The translations under genes were made by a program, and so were the position numbers. Of a stretch of 64,000 nt of DNA, positions 29,184 to 60,594 are shown piece by piece. The stretch's first letter is position 1. Each line of letters starts with the position of its first letter. The DNA comes from a virus, in the IMG/VR virus record IMGVR_UViG_3300033153_010718, positions 1 through 64,000 of that record. One strand, 5' to 3'. Below the pieces are notes generated by a model. That model was not told the origin of the DNA. It saw nothing but the letters and a program-made list of their open reading frames with translations, and did no database searches.

Positions 29184-29379
29184 CTGGCTTCCTCTCCTCA
29201 TCGCACTCGACCACGAACGGTCTGCGCTCGGTGTTCTCTAACCGCTGCCAGCCCGACCACAAGCCCGACGTCACGCGGTTGAGCACGTGCGAGATCGCCT
29301 CAGCGCCGGTCTCGGCAGACGTCCTGACGACAATGCTCTCGGACACCTCGCGCTGGAGCTTAATCGCCCAAACCGGCAT
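29161..29379 (-). CDS. hypothetical protein
   Basis: AAGGAG RBS. Confidence 0.6.
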   Translation of the reverse strand: MPVWAIKLQREVSESIVVRTSAETGAEAISHVLNRVTSGLWSGWQRLENTERRPFVVECDEERKPDAKDQEA

Positions 29380-29569
29380 CTGGATTCTCCTTGTCGTTGC
29401 GCACGATCTCAGCCAATTCGTCCACCGCCGACGCCTTCGGGCACGGGAAGGCCAACCTGCCCCAACCGCCGGGCACCTGATCGGTCGCGCCGCACTTCTC
29501 GCAGATCTCGTCGAAGGAGCTGGCGCCGAACGAGAATCGCGTCTTGTGGCTCGGGTGGAGACCGCTCAC
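29360..29569 (-). CDS. small Zn-ribbon protein with shared motif (SAVDELAEIV)
   Basis: CEKC...C; motif near the C-terminus. Confidence 0.7.
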   Translation of the reverse strand: MSGLHPSHKTRFSFGASSFDEICEKCGATDQVPGGWGRLAFPCPKASAVDELAEIVRNDKENPDAGLGD

Positions 29570-29573
29570 GGCG

Positions 29574-30056
29574 CTAGTCCGTTCCCGTGTGACCGAAGCC
29601 GCCCTCGCCGCGGAGCGTGGTGGACAGCTTCTCGCCTGGCGCGAGCCGCGCGACGTGGGCGCGCGCGACGGGCGCGACCACGAGCTGCGCGATACGCATG
29701 CCGTGCTCGACCGCGAATGGGGTGGCGCCGTGGTTGATCAGGATGACCTGGATTTCGCCACGGTAGTCGCTGTCGATGGTTCCCGGGGCGTTGGCCACGG
29801 TGATCCCGTGCTTGAGCGCCAGACCGCTGCGCGGCCTGATCTGGCCCTCGAACCCGTGGGGGATCGCCATCCGCAATCCGGTCGGAATGAGTGTGCGCTC
29901 GCCGACGTAGACCTTGGGAACGAGCACGCTGAGTGGGCCTTTGGGCCTCAGAGCGGCCCGCAGGTCGAGCCCAGCTGCCCCTCCGGTCTTGTAGCTGGGC
30001 GGCTCCAGCCCCTCGGCGTGCGGCAACATCTCGATCAGCAGCTCAGGTTCGGGCAT
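29574..30056 (-). CDS. dut: dUTPase (trimeric)
   Basis: all five motifs: [35 protein letters not shown]. Confidence 0.97.
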
Positions 30057-30072
30057 TGGCCCTCCGGGGTGT

Positions 30073-30081
30073 GTTCTACCC
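30073..30081 (-). promoter_or_regulatory. GGGTAGAAC element (leadered; GGAGG RBS follows)
   Basis: recurrent motif upstream of dut. Confidence 0.7.
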
Positions 30082-30101
30082 CGGTCGAGCGTTTCCGAGA
30101 G

Positions 30102-33100
30102 CTATTTCTTGCGTGTGCGCAGCGATTTGAGCGACCGCCGCTTGAGCCCCTCCGGTGCCTGCTCCCCAACGATCACCCGGTCGAACAGCGACTCCTCCGA
30201 GAGCTTGTCGAGGATGGTCGTCCGCCACTTGCCGGTCTTCTTGCTGCCGTAGTTGTAGGCCCCGGCGCGCTTGTGGCGATCGAACAGGGCGCCATCGCGC
30301 ATGTCGCTGGCGCCGCCGGTCCCCTGGAGCGGCGTGTCGAAGTCGATGAACAGCCCGTGCGCGCCACTGAGCGGCGACACGCGGCCTGTGAACTCCTGCC
30401 CCAGGAAAACGCCCTTGATGCGGTCACCCTTGCTCAAGGTGCCCTGGTAGCCTCCCTCCTTCTCGGCCTTGATCTTCAGCTTGAGGGTCTTGAGAGCATC
30501 GGCCACGGTCTTGCCGGCCTTGCTGACCGCGAGCAGGTAGTTGGGCTCGCCTTTGGGCGAGAGCTGCACAGCCCACCGCCGCGGTCCCAGGTTCAGGACC
30601 GAGAGCACGTAGAGGTTCCCGTAGGCCAGCTTGGTCGAGCCGGTCGGCACGAGGTACGCGCTGTAGCTCGTCTTTGACCCGTAGGAGGGGTGCCCCGGCG
30701 ACATCTTCATGTCGAGCTTGAGCCGCTTCTTGATGATCCCGACGATGTTCTTGTCGAGCCACGCCTTCGCGGAGTCGGGCAGGAAGTCGGTGGCCTCGGT
30801 CAGCCCGACATCCTGCTCCGACAGCCTCAGCGAGTTCATGTAGGCGTCTGCCCATATCTCCGCAAGCTGTTCCACGACGGCGACACCCTTGGGCGTAAGA
30901 GTGAAGACCGTGTAGGTGCCTTTGTCGTCTTGAGGACCACCAGCGAATTCTCGCGTCCCCAACCCACGTTGCTGCATCGAACTCGCGAACGTGTCGTGCA
31001 CCTCGATCTTCTTGCGCTTGTGCCCCGGCTGCGTAAACCCGCGCAGGACTGCGCGCAATTCGTAGATAGCGAGCAGGCCGGCGACCTGCTTGGCGGTCAG
31101 CTTGTGCGACTTGGCGAGCTTGCTCTTGCTCGCCGCTGCGTCGGCGATCTTCAGCGCTGCGCGCTTTGCGTTGAACGACGCTTTGACGCCTTTCGCCCTA
31201 CCGTAGAGAACATCTGCCTCGGTCAGCGCTGACGCGTCGAGTTCCAGCTCCTCCATCGTGCGGTCCAGATTCGCCGGCATTGATCGTTCTCCGGTCGGTT
31301 GGTCGATGGCCGTCTTACCCAGCAGCGTGCGATACTTCTCCCAGCCCCAGACTTCAAGCTCGGTCACGCGCCAGGAGCCTTCGGGCCTCGGCCCCTTGTA
31401 GGGCAGCTCATCCGCGTCCACGTAGGCCAGCGTCGCATGGGTCTTGAACTGCTCGGCGTAGGGCAGCTCAGCCTCTTCGGGCCCGTAGGTGTGTGCGATC
31501 GGGATTCCGGCCGCCTCCGCTGCCATGCGCAGATCAGAGTGCAGGCCGCCCAGGTTCGGCGTCGCGCCCATGTGCGGAATCGTCTGCCCGTCGTTATTCA
31601 CGAACTCGCTGTAGTGCTTCATGGTCATCGTGAACGGCTCGTACCCGCGCGAGACGCGCCTGACGACCTTGACCAGCTTGTCGTAGTCCGCGGCCGACAG
31701 GTCACCGGCGAACAGCAGCGTGTAGTGCGGAACCGAGTCGTCCTCTTCGCTCTTGTCCGGGAACAGCCGGGCGATGTTGTGCGGCACCGGCAGGAAGACG
31801 CCGCAGGTCGTGTTGTCGTTGGCGTCGGCCTCGCGTTCTTCGTCCAGCACGTCCAGCTCCTCGTCTTCTTCCGACTCGCGCACCTGCCCGAACAGCCGCC
31901 GCACCATCGCCTGCAGGAACTCCGACGGCTTGCGCCCGCGCTTGCTTCTCGCGCGACGCAATAGCGTACCGGTCACGGCCTCGGGCCACGCCTCCCTCGG
32001 CGTCGCGTTGGCGTAGTTGGTCGGCAGCTCATCGGTGTGCTTCTTCTTCTCCAACCAGGCGACAAGGTAGTCGTAGTCTTGGTAGGCGTACTGGTCCTGG
32101 AACCACCAGGACAACGACCCTACGAGCGTGGCGTCGTCGCCTTTCAGGCTGTAGTCACGGCCCCAGGAAGACGGAACGGTGTCCATTACCTTGAAACGGT
32201 CGTCCTTCCGGCGTTTGGCCACGTCGGTCACGATGCCGAGCTTCATGTCTCTGGTGAGCGGCTTGCCCATCGCCCAGAGCATCTTGTTCCAGAAGTTCCG
32301 ACCGTTCGCCGACAGCCCCTTGTAGTAGACCCGGTGTGCCAGCTCGTGCACGAGCGTCCAAGAGGCGTCCGCTATACCAACATCGCGAACCTTTCCGTCC
32401 GCAAGACCGATCTGGTCCGCGTAGACGATCAGCCGATTCGTACTGCTGCTGTAGCGGCCGGCTGAGCCGTCGGTCTTGTCGCGCCACATGAGCGTTACCG
32501 GACCGGCCAACCCCTTCGACCCGACGCCCGCTTGCTGGTAGAGCTTCAACGCTAACCCGCAGGCGTGGCGGAAGAAATCGTAACTCTTCCGCAACTCGTC
32601 ACCGTCGGCTTCGAGCTGGCGTTGGCCGAATTCGGCGTAGAGCAGCATTGGGCCGGCGCGCCCTAGTTCCACGCGATGCCGCTTCGTATCGGCAACCTTC
32701 TTCGCGAAAAACGGATACGCCCGGTGGAGCCAGTCGATACCAAAGTCAACTGCGCGTCGGATTTCGTGCACGCGCTGCATGACAGTCGTCTCGACGACGT
32801 ACCAGTTCAGTTTGTAGTAGGCTTTCTGCTCGCCACCACCTACGCGGTCGCCGATTTCTCGTAGATGCTTGGAACCTTCGCCCAGCCGCTCGATAGCCCA
32901 CTCCAGCGGTCCGGTGGAGTTGCTGCCGTAGCTGATACCAATGACGCTCTGGACACCGCGGTGAAAGATCATCCACAGGTCGCTTGCGGGGCTGCCGTGC
33001 CCAGCAGCGGCCAGGACATTGCGCGGCGTTCGCATGTCGTAGAGCTTGACCGCCGCCGCATCAAGCGAAGCCAGCGGCGAATTGGCCTTGTCAATCACAT

Positions 33101-35460: not shown

Positions 35461-35709
35461 TCAAGCCAGCTCGCCCAGCATGTCCACGGCGCTTCTGGCC
35501 TTGACCGGCACCCAGTCGTCGTGGTCGTAGACGCCTTTGAACGGCACGCGCTGGGCCCGGTCCGCGGCCGGGTTGTCCCGGTTCCGGTTGAAGGCGCGCG
35601 CTTGGCCGCTCGACAACCGCTGTACGAAGTCGGGCTCAGGCCAAAATCCGGCCGTGCGGCGTTCAGCGCAGTTCACGGTGCTGCAGTCGCAAGCCCGGTC
35701 CCACTTCAC
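35461..35709 (-). CDS. tagged small protein (SAVDMLGELA)
   Basis: GTGA overlap; C-terminal motif. Confidence 0.72.
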   Translation of the reverse strand: MKWDRACDCSTVNCAERRTAGFWPEPDFVQRLSSGQARAFNRNRDNPAADRAQRVPFKGVYDHDDWVPVKARSAVDMLGELA

Positions 35710-36053
35710 GACAGCCGGGCCAGCCGCTCTACCGCCGACGTCCCGACGTGCTCGTCGAGGCGGTCGATTCTGAGCTGCAGCGCCTTGCGTATCTGCATTT
35801 GCGGGCAGCAGGCGCGCGCATCGCGCAGGATGTCGCGGAGGACCACGACGTAGGACGGCGGCCACGTCGTCACGTCAATCCGAACCTCTCCGCGGCTGGT
35901 CTCGTCGCTGTCGTCCAGCGCCTTCGCGATCTGGAGCAGCGCGGCGTAGGGCGGCGGGCGGCCGAGCAGATCGCGCCAAAGTCCGGCGTCCGTGCGTTCC
36001 CGCAGGCGCGGCCGGATCTCGGCGCAGATTCGTTTGGTCAGGTGCAGCTTCAC
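35706..36053 (-). CDS. tagged small protein (SAVERLARLS)
   Basis: GTGA overlap; C-terminal motif. Confidence 0.72.
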   Translation of the reverse strand: MKLHLTKRICAEIRPRLRERTDAGLWRDLLGRPPPYAALLQIAKALDDSDETSRGEVRIDVTTWPPSYVVVLRDILRDARACCPQMQIRKALQLRIDRLDEHVGTSAVERLARLS

Positions 36054-36493
36054 AACTCTTCGGCGTTGTAGTAAATATCGGCGATGCGCTGGCACTTCCA
36101 CTCCCGGCCCTCGCGCATGTCCAGCTCTTTCTTACGATCCGTGATCCTGCGCTGCCGCGAGACCAGCTGGTCGTCGCCGCCGAGGTCGGCCAACATCGTG
36201 ATCGGATCGCCGCGGTCCAACGGTTCCCAATCGTCCAGCTTCTTGGCCAGTACCAGAGCCATCGGAGTGCCGCTGTAGTTGTAGACGCGCGTCTCGTAGA
36301 CCGGCTCGTCGGTCTCCAGATCGAACTTCACCAGGTTGCTGGCGGCGATGAACGGCTGCTCCCAGGCCCGGTGCTCTTGCTCGAACTCCGGCGTGCGGCG
36401 GTGAATGCCCCACGTCTCGTTCTTGGGGCCCAGCAGGAACGGCCTGATCGCAACGTGGATCGCGCTTATCTTGGTCGCCAAATGCACCTTCAT
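36050..36493 (-). CDS. hypothetical protein with internal motif variant (DPITMLADLG)
   Basis: ATGA overlap. Confidence 0.7.
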   Translation of the reverse strand: MKVHLATKISAIHVAIRPFLLGPKNETWGIHRRTPEFEQEHRAWEQPFIAASNLVKFDLETDEPVYETRVYNYSGTPMALVLAKKLDDWEPLDRGDPITMLADLGGDDQLVSRQRRITDRKKELDMREGREWKCQRIADIYYNAEEL

Positions 36494-37148: not shown

Positions 37149-37661
37149 CTAACCACAGGAAGAGTCGTCGCTACCGTCGTCTGGCGCCAGCGCGGCCAAA
37201 GCGTCGATCACGGACACGTGCGCCAGGATCGCGGCACAGACCGCCTCGAACGCACGACCTTCCCACTTGGCAATGCGCTTCACCGCCGCTCGTCCCATCT
37301 CCACGAAGTTCTCGCCGCTGTTGAATTGCTCCTTCAGGATGACGCAGACGTACGGCTTGTATCGGTAGCGCTTGCCTTTGGGTGGATAGTACTGGTGATA
37401 GCCGCCGGAGCCGCAAGAGCGCCGCCAGTCGGTGGCGAGCATGTAGCTCTTGATCCACGTCCAGTCCAGGCTCTCGATGAGCTGCGCTCGGCGGTCGTCG
37501 CGGTAGACATCCGCGAGCCACTCGGCAACATCGTCCTTCGAGTGCGCCTTCTCGTCCGAGAACGCGAGCATTAGCTTGCGAACGATCGGCACGAGCGCCG
37601 GCCGCAGATCGATCTCGGTCGCGCCAGCTGGAACTTGCACAACGAACGGATCCCCGGTCAC
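37149..37661 (-). CDS. tagged protein (SVIDALAALA)
   Basis: GTGA overlap. Confidence 0.72.
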   Translation of the reverse strand: MTGDPFVVQVPAGATEIDLRPALVPIVRKLMLAFSDEKAHSKDDVAEWLADVYRDDRRAQLIESLDWTWIKSYMLATDWRRSCGSGGYHQYYPPKGKRYRYKPYVCVILKEQFNSGENFVEMGRAAVKRIAKWEGRAFEAVCAAILAHVSVIDALAALAPDDGSDDSSCG

Positions 37662-37951
37662 GTCCCCCACGCCTCCTCGGACAGCCGCGCCTTTTCGCGC
37701 AGCCAACGCCAGTAGCCGTCCTCCGTTCGCTTGCCGATCATCATGTAGTGCGGCGCGTGCGTCCCGTCGATGACCTTCTGCTCCATCGCGGTCAGGCCCA
37801 TCACACAATCGCCTTCGTGGTCTCTCGCGCGTACGCAACGCGACCACGCGGGCGAGCCGACGTAAAAGGCAAGAGACGTCGCGCTGCCGTCCCCGCACCG
37901 GAAGAGGTGGGCCAGGCGATCGACAGCGCTCTTGACCTCCTCAGTCATCAT
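37658..37951 (-). CDS. protein with the motif at its N-terminus (SAVDRLAHLF)
   Basis: GGGAGG RBS; coupled. Confidence 0.7.
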   Translation of the reverse strand: MMTEEVKSAVDRLAHLFRCGDGSATSLAFYVGSPAWSRCVRARDHEGDCVMGLTAMEQKVIDGTHAPHYMMIGKRTEDGYWRWLREKARLSEEAWGT

Positions 37952-38153
37952 CCTCCCGCACCAGGTCCCCGAGTTGATCTACGGCCGAGCGCGGCGGGCC
38001 GAACGCCGTCACGGTAATCTCGTCGTGGATAGTGGAGAACACCGGGCCGAGCTTCGTGACCCCGGCCGTCGCGATCTTCATCGAGGCGGCTAGGCGCTTG
38101 AAGGCCGGGAGCAACTGCGCGAAGGCGTCGGAGGTGTTGGTCTGCCGGCTCAT
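37941..38153 (-). CDS. tagged small protein (SAVDQLGDLV)
   Basis: ATGA overlap. Confidence 0.72.
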   Translation of the reverse strand: MSRQTNTSDAFAQLLPAFKRLAASMKIATAGVTKLGPVFSTIHDEITVTAFGPPRSAVDQLGDLVREDDD

Positions 38154-38422
38154 GGTTCCACCACCCGCGCCAGCCGGTCTACCGCAGACCAGGGCTCGTA
38201 GACCGGCTCCAGATGCGAGTCCAGCATGCCCTCCCCGAGCCGGAACGTGATGTTGAACCGCTGCACCAACGAGGGGCACGTCTCGCGCAATCGTAGGATC
38301 GTGCCGAACGCGACGCGCTGCCAGTCCCAGGGCGCCAAGCCGTCCGCCGGCTCCAAGCACTCGCACTCCTCGATCGTTCGGGCCACCAGAACTTTCTCGG
38401 CGTGGGTCGGTTCTTCGGTCAC
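38150..38422 (-). CDS. tagged small protein (SAVDRLARVV)
   Basis: GTGA overlap. Confidence 0.72.
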   Translation of the reverse strand: MTEEPTHAEKVLVARTIEECECLEPADGLAPWDWQRVAFGTILRLRETCPSLVQRFNITFRLGEGMLDSHLEPVYEPWSAVDRLARVVEP

Positions 38423-38706
38423 GGTACGACCCGCCACGGCAAGCGCGGAGGCGAGGGCGCGCCGGGCCGCACCAGATCTGCGAGCCGGTCTACCGCCGAG
38501 CGCCGGTCCTGGTAACAGGCCATGGCCATGGCCGTCGCCATGTAGTTGACCGCGTCGTTCGCCTCCCGCCGCATCCTGTCAACACGGGTCTCGAAGTGTT
38601 GGAGTTCGGCGGCGAAACTGGGGGACGCCGGCTCCATGAAATGCGCCGGCACCACGAGCGCCTTGCTCATCATCAGATTGCGCAGGCGCTCGTATTCCTC
38701 CCTCAT
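38419..38706 (-). CDS. tagged small protein (SAVDRLADLV)
   Basis: ATGA overlap. Confidence 0.72.
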   Translation of the reverse strand: MREEYERLRNLMMSKALVVPAHFMEPASPSFAAELQHFETRVDRMRREANDAVNYMATAMAMACYQDRRSAVDRLADLVRPGAPSPPRLPWRVVP

Positions 38707-39050
38707 GGTTCGTTCCTCCCAACATCGCCCAGCAGGTCCACCGCGCTGATGCCGATAAGATCGGCCACGTCTCGCGCGATCCGCGCCATCTCGGCGCGGT
38801 GCTCATCCGGGCCGTGCACCACAGCGAAGCGCGCGAGCCAGTAGAGCGGTTCGACGAACGACGCGCGCTTGACCATCGTCCCCTCCGCGCGCCCTTGGCC
38901 CTGGAACAGCAGAAGTTCTGCGTCGGCGAGCGAGTAGACCATCAGATGGCCGGGAACCGCCTCGCGAATCTGCTCCTCCCGGCAGACGGACATCAGGTCG
39001 AGCAGGTAGGCGCAGGCGGCAGCGCTGACCGGCACTCCATCAGTCGGCAT
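38703..39050 (-). CDS. tagged small protein (SAVDLLGDVG)
   Basis: GGGAGG RBS. Confidence 0.72.
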   Translation of the reverse strand: MPTDGVPVSAAACAYLLDLMSVCREEQIREAVPGHLMVYSLADAELLLFQGQGRAEGTMVKRASFVEPLYWLARFAVVHGPDEHRAEMARIARDVADLIGISAVDLLGDVGRNEP

Positions 39051-39303
39051 CGGCTAGCCCTCCCAGCAGGTCAACCGCGCTAGCCTCCAAGTACTCCTTC
39101 AGCATCCAATCGGCGTCTCGGTGCGCGAACGAGCGCATCAGCTGTTTGTTGATCCGCGCCATGCGCTCCTCTGGGCACACGATCTCGAACAACTCCTGCC
39201 GTACCTTGGTATCGCCCGAGCGGGCGCGCTCGGTCAGTTCTGGATTCTCCTCGCACGCGGCGCACACACGCGCGGACCACGGCTCGCCCTTCCGCCAGGT
39301 CAC
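39040..39303 (-). CDS. tagged small protein (SAVDLLGGLA)
   Basis: GTGA overlap; CAAC. Confidence 0.72.
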   Translation of the reverse strand: MTWRKGEPWSARVCAACEENPELTERARSGDTKVRQELFEIVCPEERMARINKQLMRSFAHRDADWMLKEYLEASAVDLLGGLADAD

Positions 39304-39539
39304 GACACCAGCTCGCCGAGTTGATCCACCACGGAAACGAGCACCAGACCGCCAGAGCGCCGATTGCCGGGCACGTGGCTCGCCACGCGTCCGTTATCGT
39401 CCCTGCGCGCACTCACGACAACCCTGTGCGGTTGAACATCGACCGCGGTCACCGTTCCCATGCGCCGCCCGTAGGTTTCCCTGTGAACCTCCCCGGACCA
39501 GTAACACCAGGACACGCGGTCTCCAACGCGGAAGGTCAC
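39300..39539 (-). CDS. tagged SH3/KOW-like protein (SVVDQLGELV)
   Basis: FRVGDRV. Confidence 0.72.
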   Translation of the reverse strand: MTFRVGDRVSWCYWSGEVHRETYGRRMGTVTAVDVQPHRVVVSARRDDNGRVASHVPGNRRSGGLVLVSVVDQLGELVS

Positions 39540-39772
39540 ACCAGCTCCCCCAGCTTGTCCACAACGCCGAGCGGCCGGAGCAGGCCGACCACCTCGTGCG
39601 CGGGGTGGTCCGGCGTATCGTCGAAGCGGACTACGCACGTCGCGCCCGCCTTCTCGGAGTAGCCGAGCACCGTGCCGCGCCGCCCGCCGAGAGACGCCGA
39701 CTCTGGAATGCCCTCGACGCGGTCGCCGATCTTGAAGCGGTACCAGTAGTCGTCGCTGGGACGATCTTTCAT
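39536..39772 (-). CDS. tagged SH3/KOW-like protein (GVVDKLGELV)
   Basis: FKIGDRV. Confidence 0.72.
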   Translation of the reverse strand: MKDRPSDDYWYRFKIGDRVEGIPESASLGGRRGTVLGYSEKAGATCVVRFDDTPDHPAHEVVGLLRPLGVVDKLGELV

Positions 39773-40176
39773 CGAGGCAGCGCCAGACTACCGAGCGCAT
39801 CCACGGCCTGCAGACCGGTCGCGTTGATCATCTCCGTGATGCGCCGCTCCAGGGCCGCGCGCACCTGCGGATTGGTCACCGGCTTCCGGTGCTGCGTCGG
39901 GCAGTCGTGCGAGTGGTCCGGCTCGTCCAGCGTGGACCTGATCAGCGAGAGCAAGAGCCGCACGCTCGGCAACGGCCACCCGTCGATGTCCTTGTAGACG
40001 CTGCCGCCGTACGTGCCCTTGTGAGAGCCGCTCATGATGAAGCTGCTGACCCGCTGATAGTGCTCGTCGCCGGAGCGGGTATCGGTCGGACGTCCGTGCC
40101 AGTCCCATGAGCCGAACGTGCGCTTGAGCGCGCGACACTGCGTCTTGCTGAACCGGACCTCGGTCTTAGGTCTCAT
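39769..40176 (-). CDS. tagged protein (QAVDALGSLA)
   Basis: coupled. Confidence 0.72.
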   Translation of the reverse strand: MRPKTEVRFSKTQCRALKRTFGSWDWHGRPTDTRSGDEHYQRVSSFIMSGSHKGTYGGSVYKDIDGWPLPSVRLLLSLIRSTLDEPDHSHDCPTQHRKPVTNPQVRAALERRITEMINATGLQAVDALGSLALPR

Positions 40177-40384
40177 CGACCAGCTCCGCCAGTTGATCGA
40201 CCGCGGGCGCGGGCGCGAGACGATCGGGCGAGAAGACCCCGCCCTCTCCGTTGTTGAACTTCACGAACCAGCCGCCAGGTCCGTCACCGCCGCGGCTCGT
40301 GTCGCGGAGGATCCGACCGAGCATGCTCTGGTACTTCCCGCGCCGGCCGGTGTAGATGACCAGATCGCCCTCTTTCAGCATCAC
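40166..40384 (-). CDS. tagged SH3/KOW-like protein (PAVDQLAELV)
   Basis: LKEGDLV; GGAGGAGG RBS. Confidence 0.75.
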   Translation of the reverse strand: MMLKEGDLVIYTGRRGKYQSMLGRILRDTSRGGDGPGGWFVKFNNGEGGVFSPDRLAPAPAVDQLAELVDET

Positions 40385-40593
40385 GCCTCCTCCCGAACGA
40401 TGTTGGCCAGCTGGACCACGGCGGGCTCCGGCTCCAGCACTTCCTCATCGAGTGTGTACGTCCACGACGCGTCGCACGCGACGCGATAGGCGTGAGCGGC
40501 TCCCCAGTCGTAACAGTCAACGACGGTTCCCGGACCGGCGACCGGCTCCACCACGCGGTCACCGACCTTGAATCTTCCCTTGCGCTTACTCAC
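40381..40593 (-). CDS. tagged SH3/KOW-like protein (PAVVQLANIV)
   Basis: FKVGDRV. Confidence 0.75.
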   Translation of the reverse strand: MSKRKGRFKVGDRVVEPVAGPGTVVDCYDWGAAHAYRVACDASWTYTLDEEVLEPEPAVVQLANIVREEA

Positions 40594-40813
40594 GGGCCAA
40601 CCTGGCGAGCCGGTCTATGGCCGGCTCCGGCCACAGGGCCTCCTCGACGAGGGTAATCCGCTCCTCGAAGAAGGGGGCGGTGATGGGGAGATCGAGCAGG
40701 AGTTGGTAGCTCCAGCCGATGTTCTGGTCCAGGTAGAAGAACTCGATGACCGCGGCACCGTAGAGGTAAGTCACTACGCGGTCGCCGATCTTGAAGCGCG
40801 CCGGCTCAGGCAT
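40586..40813 (-). CDS. tagged SH3/KOW-like protein (PAIDRLARLA)
   Basis: FKIGDRV. Confidence 0.75.
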   Translation of the reverse strand: MPEPARFKIGDRVVTYLYGAAVIEFFYLDQNIGWSYQLLLDLPITAPFFEERITLVEEALWPEPAIDRLARLARE

Positions 40814-41021
40814 CGTCCCCCACGATCGCGGCGAGCTGGACTACAACCGATTCCGGCTCCAACGCCCCCTGAACGTACTGGACCAAGGGCGCCGGGCGGT
40901 CGAGCGCGACCGTGTAGATCGGGCCGATAACACGGCCCTGGTAGTAGGTCTTGATCTTGCCGGAGCCGTGATGCGCGGTCACCACGCGGTCGCCGACCGC
41001 AAAGTGTGCCGGGCTAGGCAT
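40806..41021 (-). CDS. tagged SH3/KOW-like protein (SVVVQLAAIV)
   Basis: FAVGDRV. Confidence 0.72.
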   Translation of the reverse strand: MPSPAHFAVGDRVVTAHHGSGKIKTYYQGRVIGPIYTVALDRPAPLVQYVQGALEPESVVVQLAAIVGDDA

Positions 41022-41226
41022 CGGCCAGCTCCCCGAGCAGATCGATCGCGGATCTCGGCACGACCTTCTCGACCGGCACCTCCTTGAGAATCCCGTTCGT
41101 GAACGAGAGATCGTAGGACGCGCGTCCGCGCACATTCCCGCGCACGGCCCAGATCGTCGCCCGCCAGCGCTCCTGCGCGCCTTCCACAGTCTCGTGCAGG
41201 TAGTAGACCTTGTCGCCAACCTTCAT
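41014..41226 (-). CDS. tagged SH3/KOW-like protein (SAIDLLGELA); leaderless
   Basis: MKVGDKV; promoter motif 6 nt upstream. Confidence 0.78.
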   Translation of the reverse strand: MKVGDKVYYLHETVEGAQERWRATIWAVRGNVRGRASYDLSFTNGILKEVPVEKVVPRSAIDLLGELADA

Positions 41227-41289: not shown

Positions 41290-41883
41290 TCAGTCGCTAC
41301 CCCGCTCGCGCGGCGCCAGCTTCGCGAGCAGCTCCACCACGCTCGGCATGCCGGCCTCGTTCAGGTCCACGTAGATGCTGGACGCCATGCCGTCGGCCTC
41401 GAACACGACTAGCCGCAGGCAGTTCAGGTGCGCCCTCGGCTCGCACGCGCACACCCAGTGCTTTGCCCGGCGCCTCCAGCGGCGATAGCCGGCGCCCGAT
41501 TCCATGCCCTCGGGCGGGTCCGTGCTGTTCCAGTAGGGGTAGTCCTCCACGAAGTCGGGCAGCTCCAGCTCGTGCCGCGTCAGGTACTCGCCCCAGGGCA
41601 CCGTGTAGGCCCATCTGCCCCGCGGCCACCAGATCCGCCAGCCGCACTCCAGATCGAGAAGCGGGGTCCGGTGGGACTCTGCCGCCACCTTCCTGAAGAT
41701 GTCGGTGATCTTCCGCGTGCGCGCGTGCCAGGTATTCTTGTCCAGCACCTCCGGCTTGATCGCCGCGGCCAGGTGCCGCGCCTGCTCCAGGATGAACGCG
41801 TAATGCGCCGGCCGCACGGTGTCTACGAATTCGCCGAGCTTCGTCTTGGGGAAGCGCTTGCCCTCGAAGATCTTGGTACTCAC
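41290..41883 (-). CDS. tagged protein (SVVELLAKLA)
   Basis: GTGA overlap; YPYWNSTDPPEG motif. Confidence 0.72.
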   Translation of the reverse strand: MSTKIFEGKRFPKTKLGEFVDTVRPAHYAFILEQARHLAAAIKPEVLDKNTWHARTRKITDIFRKVAAESHRTPLLDLECGWRIWWPRGRWAYTVPWGEYLTRHELELPDFVEDYPYWNSTDPPEGMESGAGYRRWRRRAKHWVCACEPRAHLNCLRLVVFEADGMASSIYVDLNEAGMPSVVELLAKLAPRERGSD

Positions 41884-42104
41884 CCGACAACCTCCGCGAG
41901 TAGATCGACAGCCGACATCGGACGTATATGGTCTGGGCGCACCCCGATGATGCGGGCCCGACCGACGCCGCGCGTGACCAAAGCGAGGATGGTGTAGCCG
42001 GCGTAGTTGGGCGGCGGGCAGCGCTCGATGGTCGCGTAGAGCCGGCGACCGGACTTCCAGCGCGGATCGTACATCACCCGGTCGCCGGTCTCGAACCCGC
42101 TCAT
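41880..42104 (-). CDS. tagged SH3/KOW-like protein (SAVDLLAEVV)
   Basis: FETGDRV. Confidence 0.75.
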   Translation of the reverse strand: MSGFETGDRVMYDPRWKSGRRLYATIERCPPPNYAGYTILALVTRGVGRARIIGVRPDHIRPMSAVDLLAEVVG

Positions 42105-42328
42105 CGGACGATGTCCGCAAGAAGCTCTACGGCCGACAGCGGCTCCAGCTGGCCGACCAACGCGCGCCTGGGCTGCCGCGGCACGCCCCCTAAACCGGGC
42201 CCGTCCATTCGGATGACGTAGCCTCCGTCATGGCACGGCCCGCTCACGGTTGCCCGCTCACGGTTGCCGTGCCACTGGCGCGGGTCGTAGATCACCCTGT
42301 CTCCAGGCTCATACGAGGTCAGGCTCAT
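42101..42328 (-). CDS. tagged SH3/KOW-like protein (SAVELLADIV)
   Basis: YEPGDRV. Confidence 0.72.
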   Translation of the reverse strand: MSLTSYEPGDRVIYDPRQWHGNRERATVSGPCHDGGYVIRMDGPGLGGVPRQPRRALVGQLEPLSAVELLADIVR

Positions 42329-47023: not shown

Positions 47024-47325
47024 GTCTGCTCGGAACCAAAGACAAACGAGAGGGACTGTGGAAGTGGGCGCGCGGGCAGCAGCACAAGCTCAAGAACGAG
47101 CGCGGCAAGCTCGAAGATCGGATCAAGGCCATCGACTTCGACCTGGAGCGCTTCGCGCAGATCGAGTACGCGGCCAAGCCGAACCCGTGCAAGGCGTGCG
47201 ACGGGCTCGGCAAGATCCGTCACTGGATCGCTCAGGATGAGAGCGAGGTCAAGGACTGCCGCACCTGCAGAGGCTCCGGCGAAGGCCCGGATGTGGTGAC
47301 TCAGCTGGGCAAGGTGGTGTCGTGA
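47020..47325 (+). CDS. tagged protein with DnaJ-type CxxCxGxG repeats (DVVTQLGKVV)
   Basis: CKACDGLG, CRTCRGSG. Confidence 0.72.
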   Translation: MSLLGTKDKREGLWKWARGQQHKLKNERGKLEDRIKAIDFDLERFAQIEYAAKPNPCKACDGLGKIRHWIAQDESEVKDCRTCRGSGEGPDVVTQLGKVVS

Positions 47326-47606
47326 ACCACGACCCCGGCCTGTGGGGACCGCCGATGCCCTTCTACGAGGCGGTCGGGTTAAGCCGGGATGGCGTAGCCG
47401 GCCTGTTCGATGAGCTGCCCGACGACTACCCCGAGGATGCCCCGGGCACCGTGCTGAACGTCACGCTCCACGAGGGCGAGCCGCGCGCGATCAACGGCAA
47501 CCACTACCAAGCCCTGTGGCTCGACGAGCACGTCCGCGAGTGCAAGGACTGGCGCGCCTTTCACCCCAAGGATGCCGTAACCCGGCTCGGCGAGGCAGCA
47601 CCATGA
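47322..47606 (+). CDS. tagged protein (DAVTRLGEAA)
   Basis: GTGA overlap. Confidence 0.72.
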   Translation: MNHDPGLWGPPMPFYEAVGLSRDGVAGLFDELPDDYPEDAPGTVLNVTLHEGEPRAINGNHYQALWLDEHVRECKDWRAFHPKDAVTRLGEAAP

Positions 47607-48031
47607 AGCGCGGCGATCTGGTCCGGGTCAGGCAGGACTGTGGCTTCACCAACGACGGGTTCTTCAGGCGCGGTCAGACCGGCAGGCTCGTGACGACCCC
47701 CGAGGAAGTTTGCGTTGACTGGCACAAGGGCCACTTCGAGACGAGCTGCCAGGTCCGCTTCGGCCCAGGCGACACCGCCACGATCGACAAGGACGATCTG
47801 GAGCCGATCGACGACGTCGTCTCGGCGCTCGCGCAGCTCGGGCACTTCCTGCCGACCGACGCTGACATCGGCCGCGGCGTGATCTACACCCCGCCGCACG
47901 GCGGACCGTCTGAGGACGGCGCGATCACCGGCTTCAACGATCAGTACGTGTTCGTGCGCTACCAGGACCAGCACCCGAGCGCGTCCGGCAAGGCCACGCT
48001 CCACGCGGATCTGAGGTGGCTGTCCCAATGA
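47603..48031 (+). CDS. two SH3-like barrels with the motif between them (DVVSALAQLG)
   Basis: MKRGDLV...; second unit DIGRGVIY. Confidence 0.72.
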   Translation: MKRGDLVRVRQDCGFTNDGFFRRGQTGRLVTTPEEVCVDWHKGHFETSCQVRFGPGDTATIDKDDLEPIDDVVSALAQLGHFLPTDADIGRGVIYTPPHGGPSEDGAITGFNDQYVFVRYQDQHPSASGKATLHADLRWLSQ

Positions 48032-48276
48032 AATACGAAGGCCCGCCCTACTACGTCGGCGACATAGTGAACTGGCTCGGCTGGAAGAACAAACTCAACG
48101 GCTTCCCGCGCGTGCGCCGCGGGCACGTGTGGCGCATCAAACCGGCGCGATCGATGCACGGTCCGACGCTCTACGTGCGCGCACTAGACGGGTTCGGCAA
48201 CGCGACGCTGCTGCCCGGCCTGCACGGCGTCAGCAAGGTCTCGGCCGTGGACGCGCTCGCGGAGCTGGGACGATGA
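48028..48276 (+). CDS. tagged SH3/KOW-like protein (SAVDALAELG)
   Basis: YYVGDIV. Confidence 0.72.
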   Translation: MKYEGPPYYVGDIVNWLGWKNKLNGFPRVRRGHVWRIKPARSMHGPTLYVRALDGFGNATLLPGLHGVSKVSAVDALAELGR

Positions 48277-48393: not shown

Positions 48394-48636
48394 ATGAAAC
48401 TCCCTGACCTCAAGCCTGGCGATTGGCTGCGGTGCACGCTGCCCGAACTCACCTCGATCTACGGCACCTACTGCCGGGTCATTCGCCTGCCGGACCCGGT
48501 CGCGCGGCGGGGAGCGTTCGTCGCGTTCCCGCCCATGCGCGAGGGCTGGAAGCCTTACCGCACTGCGCTGGACGACGGGCATTGGGTAAGACCCGACGAC
48601 GCCGTGACGCTGCTGGGATGGGTCGCCGCACGATGA
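48394..48636 (+). CDS. tagged SH3/KOW-like protein (DAVTLLGWVA)
   Basis: LKPGDWL; GAGGAG RBS. Confidence 0.7.
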   Translation: MKLPDLKPGDWLRCTLPELTSIYGTYCRVIRLPDPVARRGAFVAFPPMREGWKPYRTALDDGHWVRPDDAVTLLGWVAAR

Positions 48637-49082: not shown

Positions 49083-49558
49083 ACAAGACCAAGGTACGCC
49101 TCTTCGCGGACTGGTCCCGTCCCAACAACAACAACGGGGTCGGATTCGCCGCCATCGGACGGCCCAATCCCGGCGGCGTCGAGTTCCACATCGACTTCGC
49201 GGACTGGACCCGTAGCGACGACAAGATCTCGATCGGTTTCACCATCATTCAGGAGCCCGTCAACGAGCCCAGCGACGACCTGTTCATCGTGAAGCTCGTC
49301 ATCCCGGACGACCCCGAGGAGGACGGCGCGGTGAACCAGCTGGGCGAGCTGGCCGGCGGTAACGCCTGGCACCGGGTCCAACGCGTGATCGGGCAGCAGG
49401 CTCCCGGCGGCTCCAAGCTCGAACGCGGCGTGCTCTACAACGTGATGCCCAACGTGCAGTGCATCGTCGAGCTGGACCCGCGCGGTCTCATCGAAACCGG
49501 CGTAGCCGATGGAGGGCTCACGATCATCCCGACCGTCTACAAGGTCGTGGAGCCGTGA
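49079..49558 (+). CDS. protein with internal motif (GAVNQLGELA)
   Basis: GTGA overlap. Confidence 0.72.
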   Translation: MNKTKVRLFADWSRPNNNNGVGFAAIGRPNPGGVEFHIDFADWTRSDDKISIGFTIIQEPVNEPSDDLFIVKLVIPDDPEEDGAVNQLGELAGGNAWHRVQRVIGQQAPGGSKLERGVLYNVMPNVQCIVELDPRGLIETGVADGGLTIIPTVYKVVEP

Positions 49559-50737: not shown

Positions 50738-51050
50738 GCCCAAGTTCAAGATCGGCGACCGCGCCACGGCTTTTGGCCATATCGGGACCGTTGTCGCCGT
50801 CGGCTGGACGCCAATGGCCGAGCCAACCGCCGTCTACCGGTTGAAGCTGGAGTACGAGAACCCGTGGGCGACGGACCCGTGGCCGCGCCCGATCAGCAGC
50901 GGTCCGTACGGCGAGACCGTGCTCCCTGGTCTGCTAAAGAACGGCGAGCGCGACTTTCACGAGACGTATCTCACAGCCTACGGCTCTGCCGTAGACCGAC
51001 TCGGCGATCTCGTCCGGCCGGGGCAAGACCTGGGTAGAACAAGGGCATGA
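50721..51050 (+). CDS. tagged SH3/KOW-like protein (SAVDRLGDLV)
   Basis: FKIGDRA. Confidence 0.72.
   Translation: MAPASEPKFKIGDRATAFGHIGTVVAVGWTPMAEPTAVYRLKLEYENPWATDPWPRPISSGPYGETVLPGLLKNGERDFHETYLTAYGSAVDRLGDLVRPGQDLGRTRA
51032..51040 (+). promoter_or_regulatory. GGGTAGAAC-N6-ATG leaderless promoter element
   Basis: exact 6-nt spacing. Confidence 0.78.
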
Positions 51051-55592: not shown

Positions 55593-55850
55593 CTACAGCA
55601 TAGCCGAGATGTTCTTGGCGGCCGACGCGATCTCGCTGAGAGCGACCTCGCGCGCCTTCCAACGCGCGACACGCCCGGCCGCTTCCCCGTCAGGATCGCC
55701 GAGGGCGGCCAGCTGGTCCACGGCAGACGGCTCGTACGGCTCGAAACAGCTCGACTGGCGCAACGCCTTCCTGTGCTTCGCGCTGTCCATCATCGGCTTG
55801 ATGCTCATGAGCACGTTCCACAGGCCCGACATCAGCCGCAGCAGCGTCAC
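55593..55850 (-). CDS. paralog 1 of EPSAVDxLAAL-D-G-AA...W trio
   Basis: EPSAVDQLAALGDPDGEAAGRVARW. Confidence 0.72.
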   Translation of the reverse strand: MTLLRLMSGLWNVLMSIKPMMDSAKHRKALRQSSCFEPYEPSAVDQLAALGDPDGEAAGRVARWKAREVALSEIASAAKNISAML

Positions 55851-56167
55851 TCGTCACCGCCGAAGCCGCCCATGAAACTGATCGACCATCGCATCTCCTC
55901 CTGGTGCTCGTCCCACAGCTTGATGTTCTCGGCCGCGGCCCCGTCGGGATCGACCAGCGCGGCCAAGCGATCGACCGCGGACGGCTCCCGAGCCGCGAAC
56001 ATCGCCCGTCTGTGGGCCGCCTTCGCCGCCCGTTCCGCCTTCCGCGCCTTCCGCTCGTCGCGGATGGCCTTCCGCCGGTCGTACTCGGCCTTCTGCGCCG
56101 CCGATCTCGCCTTCGCCGACCGCGACTTGGGCGTCTTGGTCGCTTGCCGGCGCGATCGGCCTCTCAC
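55847..56167 (-). CDS. paralog 2 of trio; basic coiled-coil N-terminus
   Basis: EPSAVDRLAALVDPDGAAAENIKLW. Confidence 0.72.
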   Translation of the reverse strand: MRGRSRRQATKTPKSRSAKARSAAQKAEYDRRKAIRDERKARKAERAAKAAHRRAMFAAREPSAVDRLAALVDPDGAAAENIKLWDEHQEEMRWSISFMGGFGGDE

Positions 56168-56355
56168 GACAGCCACCCATCGAACCACCGGGCGCGGTCC
56201 GAAGCCTCCGCAGCCTGGTACTCCTCCCAGCGCGCGACTTTCTTGGCAGCCGCGCCGCAGGAATCCTCCAGAGCGGCCAGCCGGTCAACCGCGGAAGGCT
56301 CGGGCACCGGCCGCGAGAGAATCCTGTCGTCGTCGTAGATCTTGTCGTCGATCAC
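56164..56355 (-). CDS. paralog 3 of trio
   Basis: EPSAVDRLAALEDSCGAAAKKVARW. Confidence 0.72.
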   Translation of the reverse strand: MIDDKIYDDDRILSRPVPEPSAVDRLAALEDSCGAAAKKVARWEEYQAAEASDRARWFDGWLS

Positions 56356-57938: not shown

Positions 57939-58581
57939 CGCGGTCCGCTCGTCGTCGTAGCCAACCCAGCCGCTCGATCGCGCTAGCGCTCTCGGCGATG
58001 TACTCGGCGTTGTCGAAGGTGAGGAACCCCGAGTCCACGCCCGAGTAGTGCCGCGCCGCGACCTCCTCCCCCGTCAGCCGCCTGGGCCCGGCCGGCTCGG
58101 GGCCGTAGATGAGCAGCGTGTTGGCCCGGTTCGGCGCGTGAGCGATCAGCTCCCGCCGACCGAGGCACTCGAAGAGGCCGGGCCACCCGCACGCCGACCC
58201 GTCGGTGTTCTGCCCCAGGTAGATGACGACCTCGGCGCGGTCCAGGATCCCCAGCAGCCCAGGCATCGGGCGGTTGGCTGGCCAGCTGAGGAACGCGACG
58301 CTGGGCACGGGACCGTCGTAGTGCTCGAAGTAGCTCTGGACGAACTGAATCTTGTCGGGCACGGGATTGCTCCCTACCAGCCAGACGGCCCCGCCTTCGA
58401 GATCAACGTCGAGGCGTTCCGGCGGATTGCGGTCCACCGCGATGACGCGCCCAACGTCGCAGTGCGCCACGAGGAACTTCGACCAGCCCAGGTCCCCGCA
58501 TCCCAGGTCGATCACCTCGCAACCGCGCACCGCCACCTTCACGTGGTCCCGCTGATAGGCGCTCAAGCGGCCGTAGGTCAT
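57679..58581 (-). CDS. class I SAM-dependent methyltransferase-like protein (internal SAIERLGWL; 3' end overlaps next gene)
   Basis: VIDLGCGD...IAVD; FLSWP. Confidence 0.7.
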   Translation of the reverse strand: MTYGRLSAYQRDHVKVAVRGCEVIDLGCGDLGWSKFLVAHCDVGRVIAVDRNPPERLDVDLEGGAVWLVGSNPVPDKIQFVQSYFEHYDGPVPSVAFLSWPANRPMPGLLGILDRAEVVIYLGQNTDGSACGWPGLFECLGRRELIAHAPNRANTLLIYGPEPAGPRRLTGEEVAARHYSGVDSGFLTFDNAEYIAESASAIERLGWLRRRADRGDGAAPTAPHAAAAARDPHRAGDRRGHDDGALPRERRSEPVARFRGVCRRCRGRRQLRSGRERVAQPLALSRGLGERELEPGAARR

Positions 58582-58799: not shown

Positions 58800-59014
58800 C
58801 ACGCCTCCGGGTGCACGCGGCAGTGAACCCGCTTCTTCAGGAGCTTCTTGCACGTCTTGCAGGTGACCTTCTTCGCGTCCCGCGTCGCGTTGCCCTCGCG
58901 CTTGATCTTCCGAGCCCGATCTCCCGAGCAGCACGCCGCCCAGCCGCCGATGATGTGCGTCGTCGAGCGCACCGCGGCGTAACAGATCGCGCCGGAGTAG
59001 TGGATTGCGCTCAC
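58799..59014 (-). CDS. Cys-rich basic protein
   Basis: ACC...VTCKTC. Confidence 0.62.
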   Translation of the reverse strand: MSAIHYSGAICYAAVRSTTHIIGGWAACCSGDRARKIKREGNATRDAKKVTCKTCKKLLKKRVHCRVHPEA

Positions 59015-59460
59015 GCCTGCGCCGCCCCCGGCAACCCCCGCATGACCACCAGCATGTCGTGCCGCCACGGATGCGGCCAGCCCGGCAGCCCAGGCTCGCT
59101 GGAGAAAGCCATCGTGATGACCTCGCCGTCCGGCCGCGTCATCTCCCAGCCCTCGAACTGCCAGACCACGCGGTACCGCCAGTAGTTCCTCGGCTCGCCC
59201 TCGGCCCTGCCGTAGTTGACGCCGGCCACGACGCCCACCGCCGACACGCCGGAGTCCCGCCACAGTTCGCGGCTCTCGTCGTCGTGCTGGAAGTAGAGCG
59301 CCATCGGCATGGCCACCGTAGCCCCCGGCGGAATCGGCACCTCGGGCGGCAGCTGAGCAGTCACCGCATGCGGGTGCGGGCACGCAGCCCGCTCCGCGTC
59401 GTATTGCCGCAGCGCGTTGATCACGGCGGAACTCAAACCAGGTTCGTCTTCGTATTTCAT
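59011..59460 (-). CDS. hypothetical protein, paralog of 57459-57938; leaderless
   Basis: shared motifs; promoter motif 6 nt upstream. Confidence 0.75.
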   Translation of the reverse strand: MKYEDEPGLSSAVINALRQYDAERAACPHPHAVTAQLPPEVPIPPGATVAMPMALYFQHDDESRELWRDSGVSAVGVVAGVNYGRAEGEPRNYWRYRVVWQFEGWEMTRPDGEVITMAFSSEPGLPGWPHPWRHDMLVVMRGLPGAAQA

Positions 59461-59669
59461 GTCTCTGTTCTACCCAGCTCTGCCAACGCGAGCACCGCAG
59501 GCTGCTCGATGTAGCAGCCGTCGGCGTGACGACTCAGGCGATGGCCCTCGCACGTGTGCCACGCCCAGACCTCGCCGTCGCCTCCCAAGATCAGCTCGCC
59601 CCAGCACGGCCTGCCCGAAGCACCGCGGTCGCTGAGCGTGCTTACCCAGCACTCGGGCTGCTCAGGCAT
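59457..59669 (-). CDS. C/PCWG/CEGH family member 1 (PAVLALAELG)
   Basis: family motifs. Confidence 0.75.
   Translation of the reverse strand: MPEQPECWVSTLSDRGASGRPCWGELILGGDGEVWAWHTCEGHRLSRHADGCYIEQPAVLALAELGRTET
59467..59475 (-). promoter_or_regulatory. GGGTAGAAC-N6-ATG leaderless promoter element
   Basis: exact 6-nt spacing. Confidence 0.78.
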
Positions 59670-59898
59670 CAGCCAACTCCGCAAGCGCGAGGACAGCAGG
59701 CTGTTCGACGTAGACCTGCTGGTCGTAGAGCAGCCGGTGACCCTCGCACGCGTAGACCGCGTGCGAGGAGAAGGGCTTCCCCGACTTCCAGTTCGTCCTG
59801 ATCGTCGCTGCGACCTTCACCACTCCCCAGCACGGTCCGCCGAGCTGCCCGCTGACCAGCGAGTTGTCCACGTCCCTCGTCCAGCACTTCTCAGTCAT
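59662..59898 (-). CDS. C/PCWG/CEGH family member 2 (PAVLALAELA)
   Basis: family motifs. Confidence 0.75.
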   Translation of the reverse strand: MTEKCWTRDVDNSLVSGQLGGPCWGVVKVAATIRTNWKSGKPFSSHAVYACEGHRLLYDQQVYVEQPAVLALAELADA

Positions 59899-60094
59899 CG
59901 ACAAGATCCGACAGCGCGATGACGGCCGGCTTCTCGACGTAGGGTCCGCCGCTGTAGACCAGCCGATGGCCCTCGCACGCGTAGATCGGATCGAGAGCTT
60001 CGACGATGAGGATGCGGCGAGCCTCCCCGATCGCGCCCCAGCACGCCCCCAGCTTGTCATCAGCCGCCCGGCACCCGCGCCCCGGCTCAGTCAC
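59891..60094 (-). CDS. C/ACWG/CEGH family member 3 (PAVIALSDLV)
   Basis: family motifs. Confidence 0.75.
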   Translation of the reverse strand: MTEPGRGCRAADDKLGACWGAIGEARRILIVEALDPIYACEGHRLVYSGGPYVEKPAVIALSDLVDD

Positions 60095-60284
60095 GGGCTA
60101 GCTCCGCGAGAGCGAGCACAGCCGGCTGTTTGATGTAGTCGTCGCCGCGCCACGTGTTCCGGTGACCCTCGCACGCGCAGAGAACCTCCTCGTCGAGCCG
60201 GACCGGATCCACGCGTGTCACCGCGCCCCAGCACGGCCCCCCGTAGCGGCCCCCGTACACGCAGCACTCGGGCTTCTCAGGCAT
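60087..60284 (-). CDS. C/PCWG/CEGH family member 4 (PAVLALAELA)
   Basis: family motifs. Confidence 0.75.
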   Translation of the reverse strand: MPEKPECCVYGGRYGGPCWGAVTRVDPVRLDEEVLCACEGHRNTWRGDDYIKQPAVLALAELARD

Positions 60285-60594
60285 CAGCCAGCTCGGCCAA
60301 AGCCACGACCGCGGGCTTCTCGATGTAGGCGCCCTGCTCGTAGAACAGCTGGTGCCCCTCGCACGCGTAGATCTCGTGCGCGACGTCGCGATCCCCCTCC
60401 TCGTAGTCGCAGTAGGGCTCCGAGACCAGTCGATCGATCTTGACCGTAGCCACGCACCGCGTCGCGCCCCAACACGGCCCACCGATCACGGTCAGGTCCA
60501 GGTCCCGGTCCGACCAAGCGCACTCCGGCGCGCAAGGCTCGCGGTGGACAGCGTAGAGGTCAGGCCATTTTGGGTATTTTGCCAGCCCTTCCAC
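60277..60594 (-). CDS. C/PCWG/CEGH family member 5 (PAVVALAELA); start uncertain
   Basis: family motifs; GGGAGG RBS. Confidence 0.72.
   Translation of the reverse strand: MEGLAKYPKWPDLYAVHREPCAPECAWSDRDLDLTVIGGPCWGATRCVATVKIDRLVSEPYCDYEEGDRDVAHEIYACEGHQLFYEQGAYIEKPAVVALAELADA

Follow-up and report, generated by a model that had tools for sequence, protein, structure and literature searches.

The stretch of DNA analyzed here (the window) comprises positions 1 to 64,000 of the 120,043-bp viral record IMGVR_UViG_3300033153_010718 (G000), which has a G+C content of ~65%, and it holds arrays of small genes whose products share a ~10-residue peptide, referred to below as the tag. The record encodes a T4-type major head protein, a prohead protease, and a large block of tRNAs. 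Its head protein is only ~24 to 31% identical to those of the closest cultured phages, and IMG/VR contains relatives with head proteins that are 74 to 80% identical. CheckV rates the record as 53% complete and one relative, G005, whose 275,101-bp contig has terminal repeats, as complete. Together with the T4-type head genes, these values show that the record covers about half of a jumbo phage genome and that the phage is T4-like, GC-rich, and uncultured. The host was sought in two scans of reference genomes, which gave no clue, and a megablast search of the tag-gene array against GenBank phages returned no match. Genes were called with a home-made procedure that combines a codon log-odds model with ribosome-binding sites (RBSs); it yielded 270 genes in the 120-kb record, and gene counts are therefore approximate. 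The records of the relatives (G001, G005, G006, and G007) were read in part.

In its extended form the motif reads hydrophobic-x-Pro-x, then [S/D/P]-[A/V]-[V/I]-[D/T/E]-x-L-[A/G]-x-[L/V/I]-[A/V], then 0 to 7 variable residues, with the upstream hydrophobic-x-Pro-x often present. When all six frames are translated, a strict version of the tag pattern has 44 matches in the window and 104 in the whole record, almost always in the coding frame and strand and directly before a stop codon. Among the 270 gene calls the strict pattern occurs 95 times, whereas 500 shuffles of the residues gave 0.47 on average and never more than 4, and 81 of these occurrences lie within the last 30 residues, compared with 0.17 when those residues alone are shuffled. 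The enrichment over shuffles is thus ~200-fold. We built a ten-column matrix from the strict-pattern copies and applied a threshold of ≥10 bits. The scores form a two-peaked distribution from which the tags separate cleanly, and 113 segments in 112 proteins of the whole record, 41% of its genes, pass the threshold. The corresponding six-frame scan gave 126 hits in the record and 51 in the window, where three low scorers (7308, 23575, and 26321) were dropped as out-of-context and chance-like, leaving 48 credible copies. A preliminary description of this DNA, made from the letters and open reading frames (ORFs) alone, had claimed that about 50 ORFs for small proteins share the peptide, and the whole record shows the phenomenon to be larger than claimed. 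The same description had counted 26 of 27 consecutive genes as tagged between 35461 and 43577 when variants were included; 25 of the 27 reach 10 bits and the other two carry weak variants. Head genes and the tRNA region of the window are free of copies, as had been stated.

The tag is concentrated at the ends of proteins, with 94 of the 113 matrix copies within 20 residues of the C terminus and most copies 0 to 7 residues from the stop codon. An outside control consisted of 498 kb from 57 unrelated viral loci, 29 with at least 60% G+C, chosen because each contains one exact match to a tag-coding DNA pattern. Just one of these 57 matches is near the end of an ORF. In comparison, clade loci totaling 87 kb contain 33 tag-coding copies. 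By this measure the tag is absent from the unrelated loci.

The proteins that carry the tag are mostly unrelated to each other, as the preliminary description had proposed. When the tag was trimmed off the 101 C-terminal carriers, which range in length from 31 to 197 residues, BLAST placed them in 80 clusters and iterative hidden Markov model (HMM) searches in 67, of which 60 are singletons. The biggest cluster comprises 21 small barrels and is followed by a cysteine-rich family of seven and a few families of two to four; about a third of the carriers contain a barrel-like G-[DE]-x-V box. With this many HMM clusters and singletons among the trimmed carriers, a single paralogue family is ruled out. 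Scans of 111 carriers against Pfam, PHROGs, and NCBIfam gave almost no matches at all, and no family covers the tag. A literature search by keyword turned up no account of such a tag, or of its kind, in phages.

Carriers with recognizable domains occur in the relative G006, where a tag follows a complete PF01555 DNA methylase domain (L067:4038-4802, 255 residues) and another follows a domain resembling the C-terminal part of L7/L12 (L067:11294-11695). A methyltransferase carrier had been claimed for the window; none was found there, but the relative G006 does have a tagged methylase. Among 46 homologues of this methylase, those with at least 57% identity end in the tag, one copy being degenerate, and those below 57% identity all end in unrelated tails that begin right after the last helix shared by the domain. 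In fusion and two-domain proteins the tag is kept after each module, and some proteins (including one at L008) have two tags. In one orthologous pair the tag is present in one member and absent from the other. By these sequence comparisons, the tag is a portable protein module.

Several properties of the coding sequence bear on whether the peptide or the underlying nucleic acid is conserved. Information content is high at the first and second codon positions of the tag, and at the third position it is no higher than in the flanks. Synonymous codon use in the tag roughly follows that of the genome for every residue, and serine at position 1 is encoded by TCN in 39 copies and by AGC in 10. Positions 1 and 4 co-vary: of 58 copies with Ser1, 54 have Asp or Glu at position 4, and of 22 with Asp1, 21 have Thr or Ser there. 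Comparison of 20 homologous pairs from related phages gave 59% identity in the tag and 35% in the rest of the protein, and identical residues are specified by different codons in 54% of cases in the tag, compared with 40% elsewhere. Nucleotide identity therefore does not exceed amino-acid conservation. Because third positions are free, serine is drawn from two codon families, positions 1 and 4 co-vary, and homologues differ synonymously, selection acts on the peptide and not on DNA. The synonymous variation noted in the preliminary description is thus borne out.

The alternative is that conservation lies at the nucleic-acid level, in a promoter, an RBS, or a coupling signal for the next gene that is translated by chance. 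In 82 of the 101 carriers the next start codon is no more than 10 nucleotides from the stop codon, which puts tag codons 7 and 8 (GGN/GCN GAG) at the Shine-Dalgarno position, and these codons show a mild enrichment in purines, including GGA/GGG and GAG. In addition, GTA makes up 26% of the valine codons at tag position 3, compared with 7% genome-wide, and often yields GCG-GTA-GAC, in which GGTAGAC resembles the element GGGTAGAAC. Some tags may therefore double as weak promoter-like sites. However, the reciprocal exchange of Ser or Asp at position 1 with Asp or Thr at position 4 requires multi-base changes, serine switches between TCN and AGC codons, and the true DNA motif of this genome, GGGTAGAAC, behaves differently, as an exact 9-mer present in ~36 copies in the whole record in any reading frame. 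Fourteen of the 101 carriers have no closely following gene, five of them convergent with their neighbor, and therefore the tag is not a coupling signal. Neither the purine enrichment at codons 7 and 8 nor the excess of GTA can account for the motif, and the preliminary description had argued that overlapping RBSs cannot explain its upstream S-A-V-D-x-L part. A DNA repeat or promoter is ruled out by the free third positions and the codon differences at identical residues, and a nascent-peptide stalling element is ruled out because the register to the stop codon varies. We consider conservation of a nucleic-acid signal to be largely refuted and essentially excluded.

The element GGGTAGAAC itself occurs in the window at, for example, 13064, 15139, 30081(-), 36762(-), 37115(-), and 41241(-), and further at 42717(-), 43613, 50417, 51032, 59475(-), and 63305(-). 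It is placed either 5 to 6 nucleotides before an ATG that has no Shine-Dalgarno sequence or 20 to 28 nucleotides before an ATG that has one, and it looks like a lone -10-type promoter element that would give leaderless or short-leader mRNAs. Where it comes after a tag, the tail of the protein reads G-R-T.

The pairing of residues at positions 1 and 4 also has a structural meaning, since reciprocal pairing of this type is the capping box of a helix N terminus. The hydrophobic positions 2, 3, 6, 7, 9, and 10 fall on one wide face. In AlphaFold2 models the tag is a helix on two unrelated carriers: residues 65 to 73 of a five-stranded KOW/Tudor-like barrel, with a predicted local distance difference test (pLDDT) value of ~90, and residues 246 to 254 of the DNA methylase, with pLDDT values of 77 to 85, after a six-residue linker. 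The capping-box covariation and the two models support the N-capped amphipathic helix of the preliminary description. A profile search of Protein Data Bank sequences found only weak likeness to designed repeat proteins and an alphaRep/PBS-HEAT helix (E 0.64), which we treated as chance. The tail after the tag varies from 0 to 16 residues and is often acidic, and internal copies (47813, 49325, and 55698-56295) and an N-terminal copy (37901) exist as had been described. Thus, the tag does not depend on a free C terminus.

The tag extends to related phages. Its profile hits 66 places in the complete genome G005, 42 in G001, 28 in G006, and 9 in G007. The tag arrays of these relatives have almost no DNA similarity to the window and few protein homologues in common with it. 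A DNA search of one relative found only two 250-bp matches, which indicates that the arrays turn over fast. As judged from these profile hits, the tag is a trait of a clade of roughly 275-kb T4-like phages and persists while its carrier proteins are replaced. The copies in the window are listed in Table 1.

Table 1 Copies of the tag in the window, with matrix scores.
Feature	Position	Strand	Score (bits)	Remarks
Tag, 2 aa before stop	27523..27552	-	21.3	Gene 27514-27975; conserved in G005 and G007 homologues
Tag, 13 aa before stop	29402..29431	-	23.2	
Weak internal tag-like copy	30852..30881	-	12.3	1305-aa protein
Tag, very C terminus	35464..35493	-	25.7	
Tag, very C terminus	35709..35738	-	21.8	
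Internal variant, 42 aa before stop	36179..36208	-	10.1	D-P-I-T type
Tag, 11 aa before stop	37185..37214	-	22.2	173-aa protein
N-terminal tag, residue 7	37901..37930	-	13.4	96-aa protein
Tag, 5 aa before stop	37959..37988	-	28.9	
Tag, 2 aa before stop	38159..38188	-	24.6	
Tag, 16 aa before stop	38470..38499	-	27.9	
Tag, 4 aa before stop	38718..38747	-	22.7	
Tag, 3 aa before stop	39052..39081	-	23.3	
Tag, 1 aa before stop	39306..39335	-	27.7	ORF outside home-made gene calls
Variant tag, very C terminus	39539..39568	-	14.7	Barrel family
Variant tag, 3 aa before stop	39781..39810	-	14.0	
Tag, 3 aa before stop	40178..40207	-	27.1	Kept in G001 homologue
Tag, 4 aa before stop	40396..40425	-	20.8	
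Tag, 2 aa before stop	40595..40624	-	24.0	
Tag, 4 aa before stop	40821..40850	-	20.5	
Tag, 2 aa before stop	41023..41052	-	26.5	
Tag, 7 aa before stop	41314..41343	-	20.7	197-aa protein
Tag, 1 aa before stop	41886..41915	-	24.8	Carrier folded with AlphaFold2; model helix 65-73
Tag, 1 aa before stop	42107..42136	-	22.9	ORF outside home-made gene calls
Tag, 6 aa before stop	42346..42375	-	19.1	D-x-x-T type
Tag	42714..42743	-	25.9	Tail runs into GGGTAGAAC element
Tag, 3 aa before stop	43027..43056	-	21.8	D-x-x-T type
Tag, very C terminus	43269..43298	-	26.0	
Tag, 2 aa before stop	45014..45043	+	26.9	
Tag, 3 aa before stop	45214..45243	+	18.2	D-x-x-T type
Tag, very C terminus	45438..45467	+	27.6	
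Variant tag, very C terminus	45665..45694	+	13.1	
Tag, very C terminus	46991..47020	+	23.5	
Tag, 1 aa before stop	47290..47319	+	19.5	
Tag, 1 aa before stop	47571..47600	+	19.4	
Internal tag	47813..47842	+	10.0	Between two barrel-like halves, 142-aa protein
Tag, 1 aa before stop	48241..48270	+	24.7	
Tag, 2 aa before stop	48598..48627	+	18.6	
Internal variant	49325..49354	+	12.1	159-aa protein
Tag, 11 aa before stop	50985..51014	+	28.2	Tail overlaps GGGTAGAAC
Internal tag	55698..55727	-	24.8	Then conserved second segment, ~34 aa; paralogue 1
Internal tag	55952..55981	-	26.1	Then conserved second segment, ~34 aa; paralogue 2
Internal tag	56266..56295	-	21.8	Then conserved second segment, ~34 aa; paralogue 3
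Tag-like copy	57955..57984	-	18.2	ORF of uncertain status, gap in gene calls
Tag	59472..59501	-	18.5	P-A-V type; Cys-rich paralogue 1
Tag	59671..59700	-	20.7	Cys-rich paralogue 2
Weak variant	59900..59929	-	8.2	Cys-rich paralogue 3; below 10-bit threshold
Tag	60096..60125	-	20.7	Cys-rich paralogue 4
Tag	60286..60315	-	21.7	Cys-rich paralogue 5

A second segment of ~25 to 35 residues with the pattern D-P-x3-A-A-x2-[VI]-x2-W follows the tag in the window at 55593-56355 (-), in the record at ~83.7 kb, and at loci L008 and L074. The tag together with this conserved segment may be a longer form of the module.

The presence of a single conserved helix on dozens of otherwise different proteins favors a conserved receiving surface, and we infer that the tag is a putative address or docking label that acts in trans on one common reader, a reading to which we assign a probability of about one half. 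According to this model, the phage clade would append the tag, mostly C-terminally, to more than 100 small accessory proteins of different origins, and the hydrophobic face formed by positions 2, 3, 6, 7, 9, and 10 would plug into the reader. The reader could then handle a fast-changing library of small proteins as one group that is recruited, remodeled, processed, or cleared. The preliminary description had likewise proposed a routing tag. The helix, the selection on the peptide, the portability, and the independence from a free end support parts of that proposal, and its central element, a single partner that would read the tag, is putative.

Several observations weigh against a common reader. 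Approximately 15 to 20% of tag copies are internal or N-terminal, and some tags have no acidic residue at either position 1 or position 4. In the barrel family the tag helix begins ~3 residues after the last strand, with a pLDDT of ~90, and may pack on its own domain. The pLDDT of the methylase helix is such that it is not clearly a loose tail. Because the barrel helix directly abuts its domain and is modeled confidently, the helix could instead act in cis, capping or stabilizing the end of each small domain after being spread by gene duplication or recombination that preserves 3' ends, with no common reader. It could close the open face of SH3/Tudor-like barrels, and the size of the barrel family, the frequency of the G-[DE]-x-V box, and the retention of a tag after each domain of two-domain proteins all fit such a role. 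However, a role in cis would require at least 67 families, including helical and cysteine-rich proteins and a 255-residue methylase, each to provide the same docking groove. Distant homologues of the methylase fold without the tag, and the tag is better conserved between phages than the bodies on which it would pack. We therefore regard a purely structural role as unlikely. The wide hydrophobic face, with small residues at Ala2, Ala/Gly7, and Ala/Val10, is also suited to close helix packing, and some proteins carry two tags, so that tags could bind each other in small helix bundles, and tagged proteins would then assemble as mixed oligomers or in a factory resembling a condensate. At ten residues the helix is short for stable bundling and there is no heptad continuation, which makes tag-tag binding a poor prospect.

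Short terminal peptides that address proteins to a shared destination are known from other systems. Encapsulation peptides of bacterial microcompartments (BMCs), which are amphipathic helices, and encapsulin cargo-loading peptides address unrelated cargo to a shell. The tag resembles the BMC peptides in being a predicted amphipathic helix at a protein terminus, but it differs from both types in sequence and has far more carriers. Searches of five clade records, the complete one included, found neither BMC shell genes (PF00936) nor encapsulin (PF04454). The ssrA and SspB-ClpX tags are C-terminal peptides that hand many proteins to one machine and depend on free C-terminal residues. By analogy, the tag could be a degron or timer with which a host or phage protease system clears the accessory set at a fixed stage of infection, given that it is mostly C-terminal, that many copies end in nonpolar -L-A or -L-V, that carriers are small accessory proteins, and that the clade encodes a CobT-like protein with an HExxH motif. 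Like ssrA/ClpX-type tags, it is a C-terminal peptide on many different proteins. In contrast to them, it has no fixed register to the carboxyl end (0 to 16 residues, with tails that are often acidic), it has internal and N-terminal copies, and no phage ClpP was found in the clade, complete genome included. We give a degron only a small chance.

The closest precedent within phages is the capsid targeting sequence (CTS) of T4. The diverse internal proteins of T-even phages share only this sequence (PMC3012670), which makes it attractive to view the tag as a C-terminal analogue that directs carriers to the scaffold core, so that they are packed in the head and injected as a counter-defense set. 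The phage studied here is T4-like, with a major head protein and a prohead protease, and the tag contains L-[AG]-[ED], which is similar to the protease site L/I-x-E of T4. As with the tag, the CTS is a ~10-residue amphipathic peptide that is the sole element common to diverse small proteins and is portable to foreign ones (PMC3012670). However, the CTS is N-terminal, ends in L/I-x-E, and occurs on a handful of head proteins, whereas the tag is mostly C-terminal, has no obligatory Glu, and occurs on more than 100 proteins. At position 8 of the tag, Glu is found in 30, Asp in 22, and other residues in 43 of 95 copies. Furthermore, the phage has an N-terminal leader of its own, M-S-L-[YF]-x-R-[VL]-..-E, ending in L-x-E, on five proteins (window 11185-11412, 11416-11775, 30102-34019, and 34016-34510, all on the minus strand, and 113810-114727 (-) of the full record). 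By its sequence, this leader resembles a T4-type CTS with protease site. It is not the motif of the C-terminal tag, an identity that was considered and rejected: the tag matrix gives the five leaders scores of -13 to -25 bits. There is no precedent for more than 100 cargo species, amounting to ~40% of genes. Capsid targeting by the tag is consequently the least probable of the roles considered for the peptide.

The portal gene of the window (5703-10415, minus strand) encodes 1570 residues with HNH- and recombinase-like inserts that probably represent one intein or two, and the versions in relatives are 757 to 1080 residues long. Between the portal and protease genes, a 424-residue protein (3522-4796, minus strand) has long poly-acidic runs followed by a Lys/Arg-rich block and resembles a scaffold or core protein. 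A look-up of two conserved proteins without a tag (45930-46325 in the window and 90519-91670 in the full record) in the ESM Atlas returned nothing usable.

If the tag is a docking label, the best candidate for its reader is a MoxR-type AAA+ ATPase of the clade, which is CobS-like, together with a CobT-like HExxH/vWA partner. In the L077 proteins, the ATPase candidate belongs to AAA_5/CbbQ_C and has its Walker A motif intact, and the CobT_C/vWA partner has an N-terminal HExxH and the D-x-S-x-S start of a metal ion-dependent adhesion site (MIDAS). Their genes are adjacent in the complete genome G005 (~36.5-39 kb) and in G006 (L077:1303-4819), where a tagged 103-residue gene lies between them, and in G001 an AAA_5 gene is at the contig end. 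In these features the clade pair is similar to the MoxR/vWA pairs CbbQ-CbbO, NorQ-NorD, RavA-ViaA, and CobS-CobT. It has been proposed that MoxR pairs capture substrate peptides through their vWA domains (PMC7159879). In the clade, the vWA site could catch the conserved acidic N-cap region of the tag, after which the ATPase or peptidase would act on the client. Jumbo phages that are T4-like (group 2.2) are described as having a MoxR and peptidase-vWA pair of this architecture, for which a part in virion assembly was proposed (PMC7824862). The published phage pairs differ from the arrangement suggested here in that no client tags have been described for them. Because MoxR/vWA pairs are common in phages, including T4-like phages that are not known to carry tags, the presence of the pair in the clade is weak evidence, and the pair was not found in the 120-kb record, a fragment, which counts against this choice of reader. 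The fragment G007 lacks the pair as well. We therefore name the pair tentatively and consider it more likely to be wrong than right, and a host protein is an equally open candidate. Neither the T4 gp45 clamp (PF02916) nor the MoxR AAA_3 family was found in the clade.

The CobS/CobT-like genes adjoin a primase-like gene in both genomes where they are adjacent (L077:1303-4819 and G005 ~36.5-39 kb). Elsewhere, the clade genomes contain one more AAA_5 gene and one more vWA gene.

The concept of short, portable addressing peptides is already known, and for this particular tag we found no family model or description. Most of the uncharacterized genes of large phages are small orphans, and if nearly half of the orphan genes of a clade share one label, a single experiment could show the destination and the handler of the whole class. 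The tag can be used as a sequence signature for spotting accessory proteins in metagenomic phages, and it is a possible portable label for delivering proteins to the same destination. It is conceivable, if doubtful, that large phages organize much of their accessory proteome through a clade-specific peptide address code that is read by their own MoxR/peptidase-vWA machine. Should the MoxR/vWA pair indeed read the tag, a function would be at hand for these genes, which are widespread in T4-like and jumbo phages and have no established role: the pair would act on a library of small effectors that changes rapidly, recruiting or remodeling them, processing them, or setting the time of their removal.

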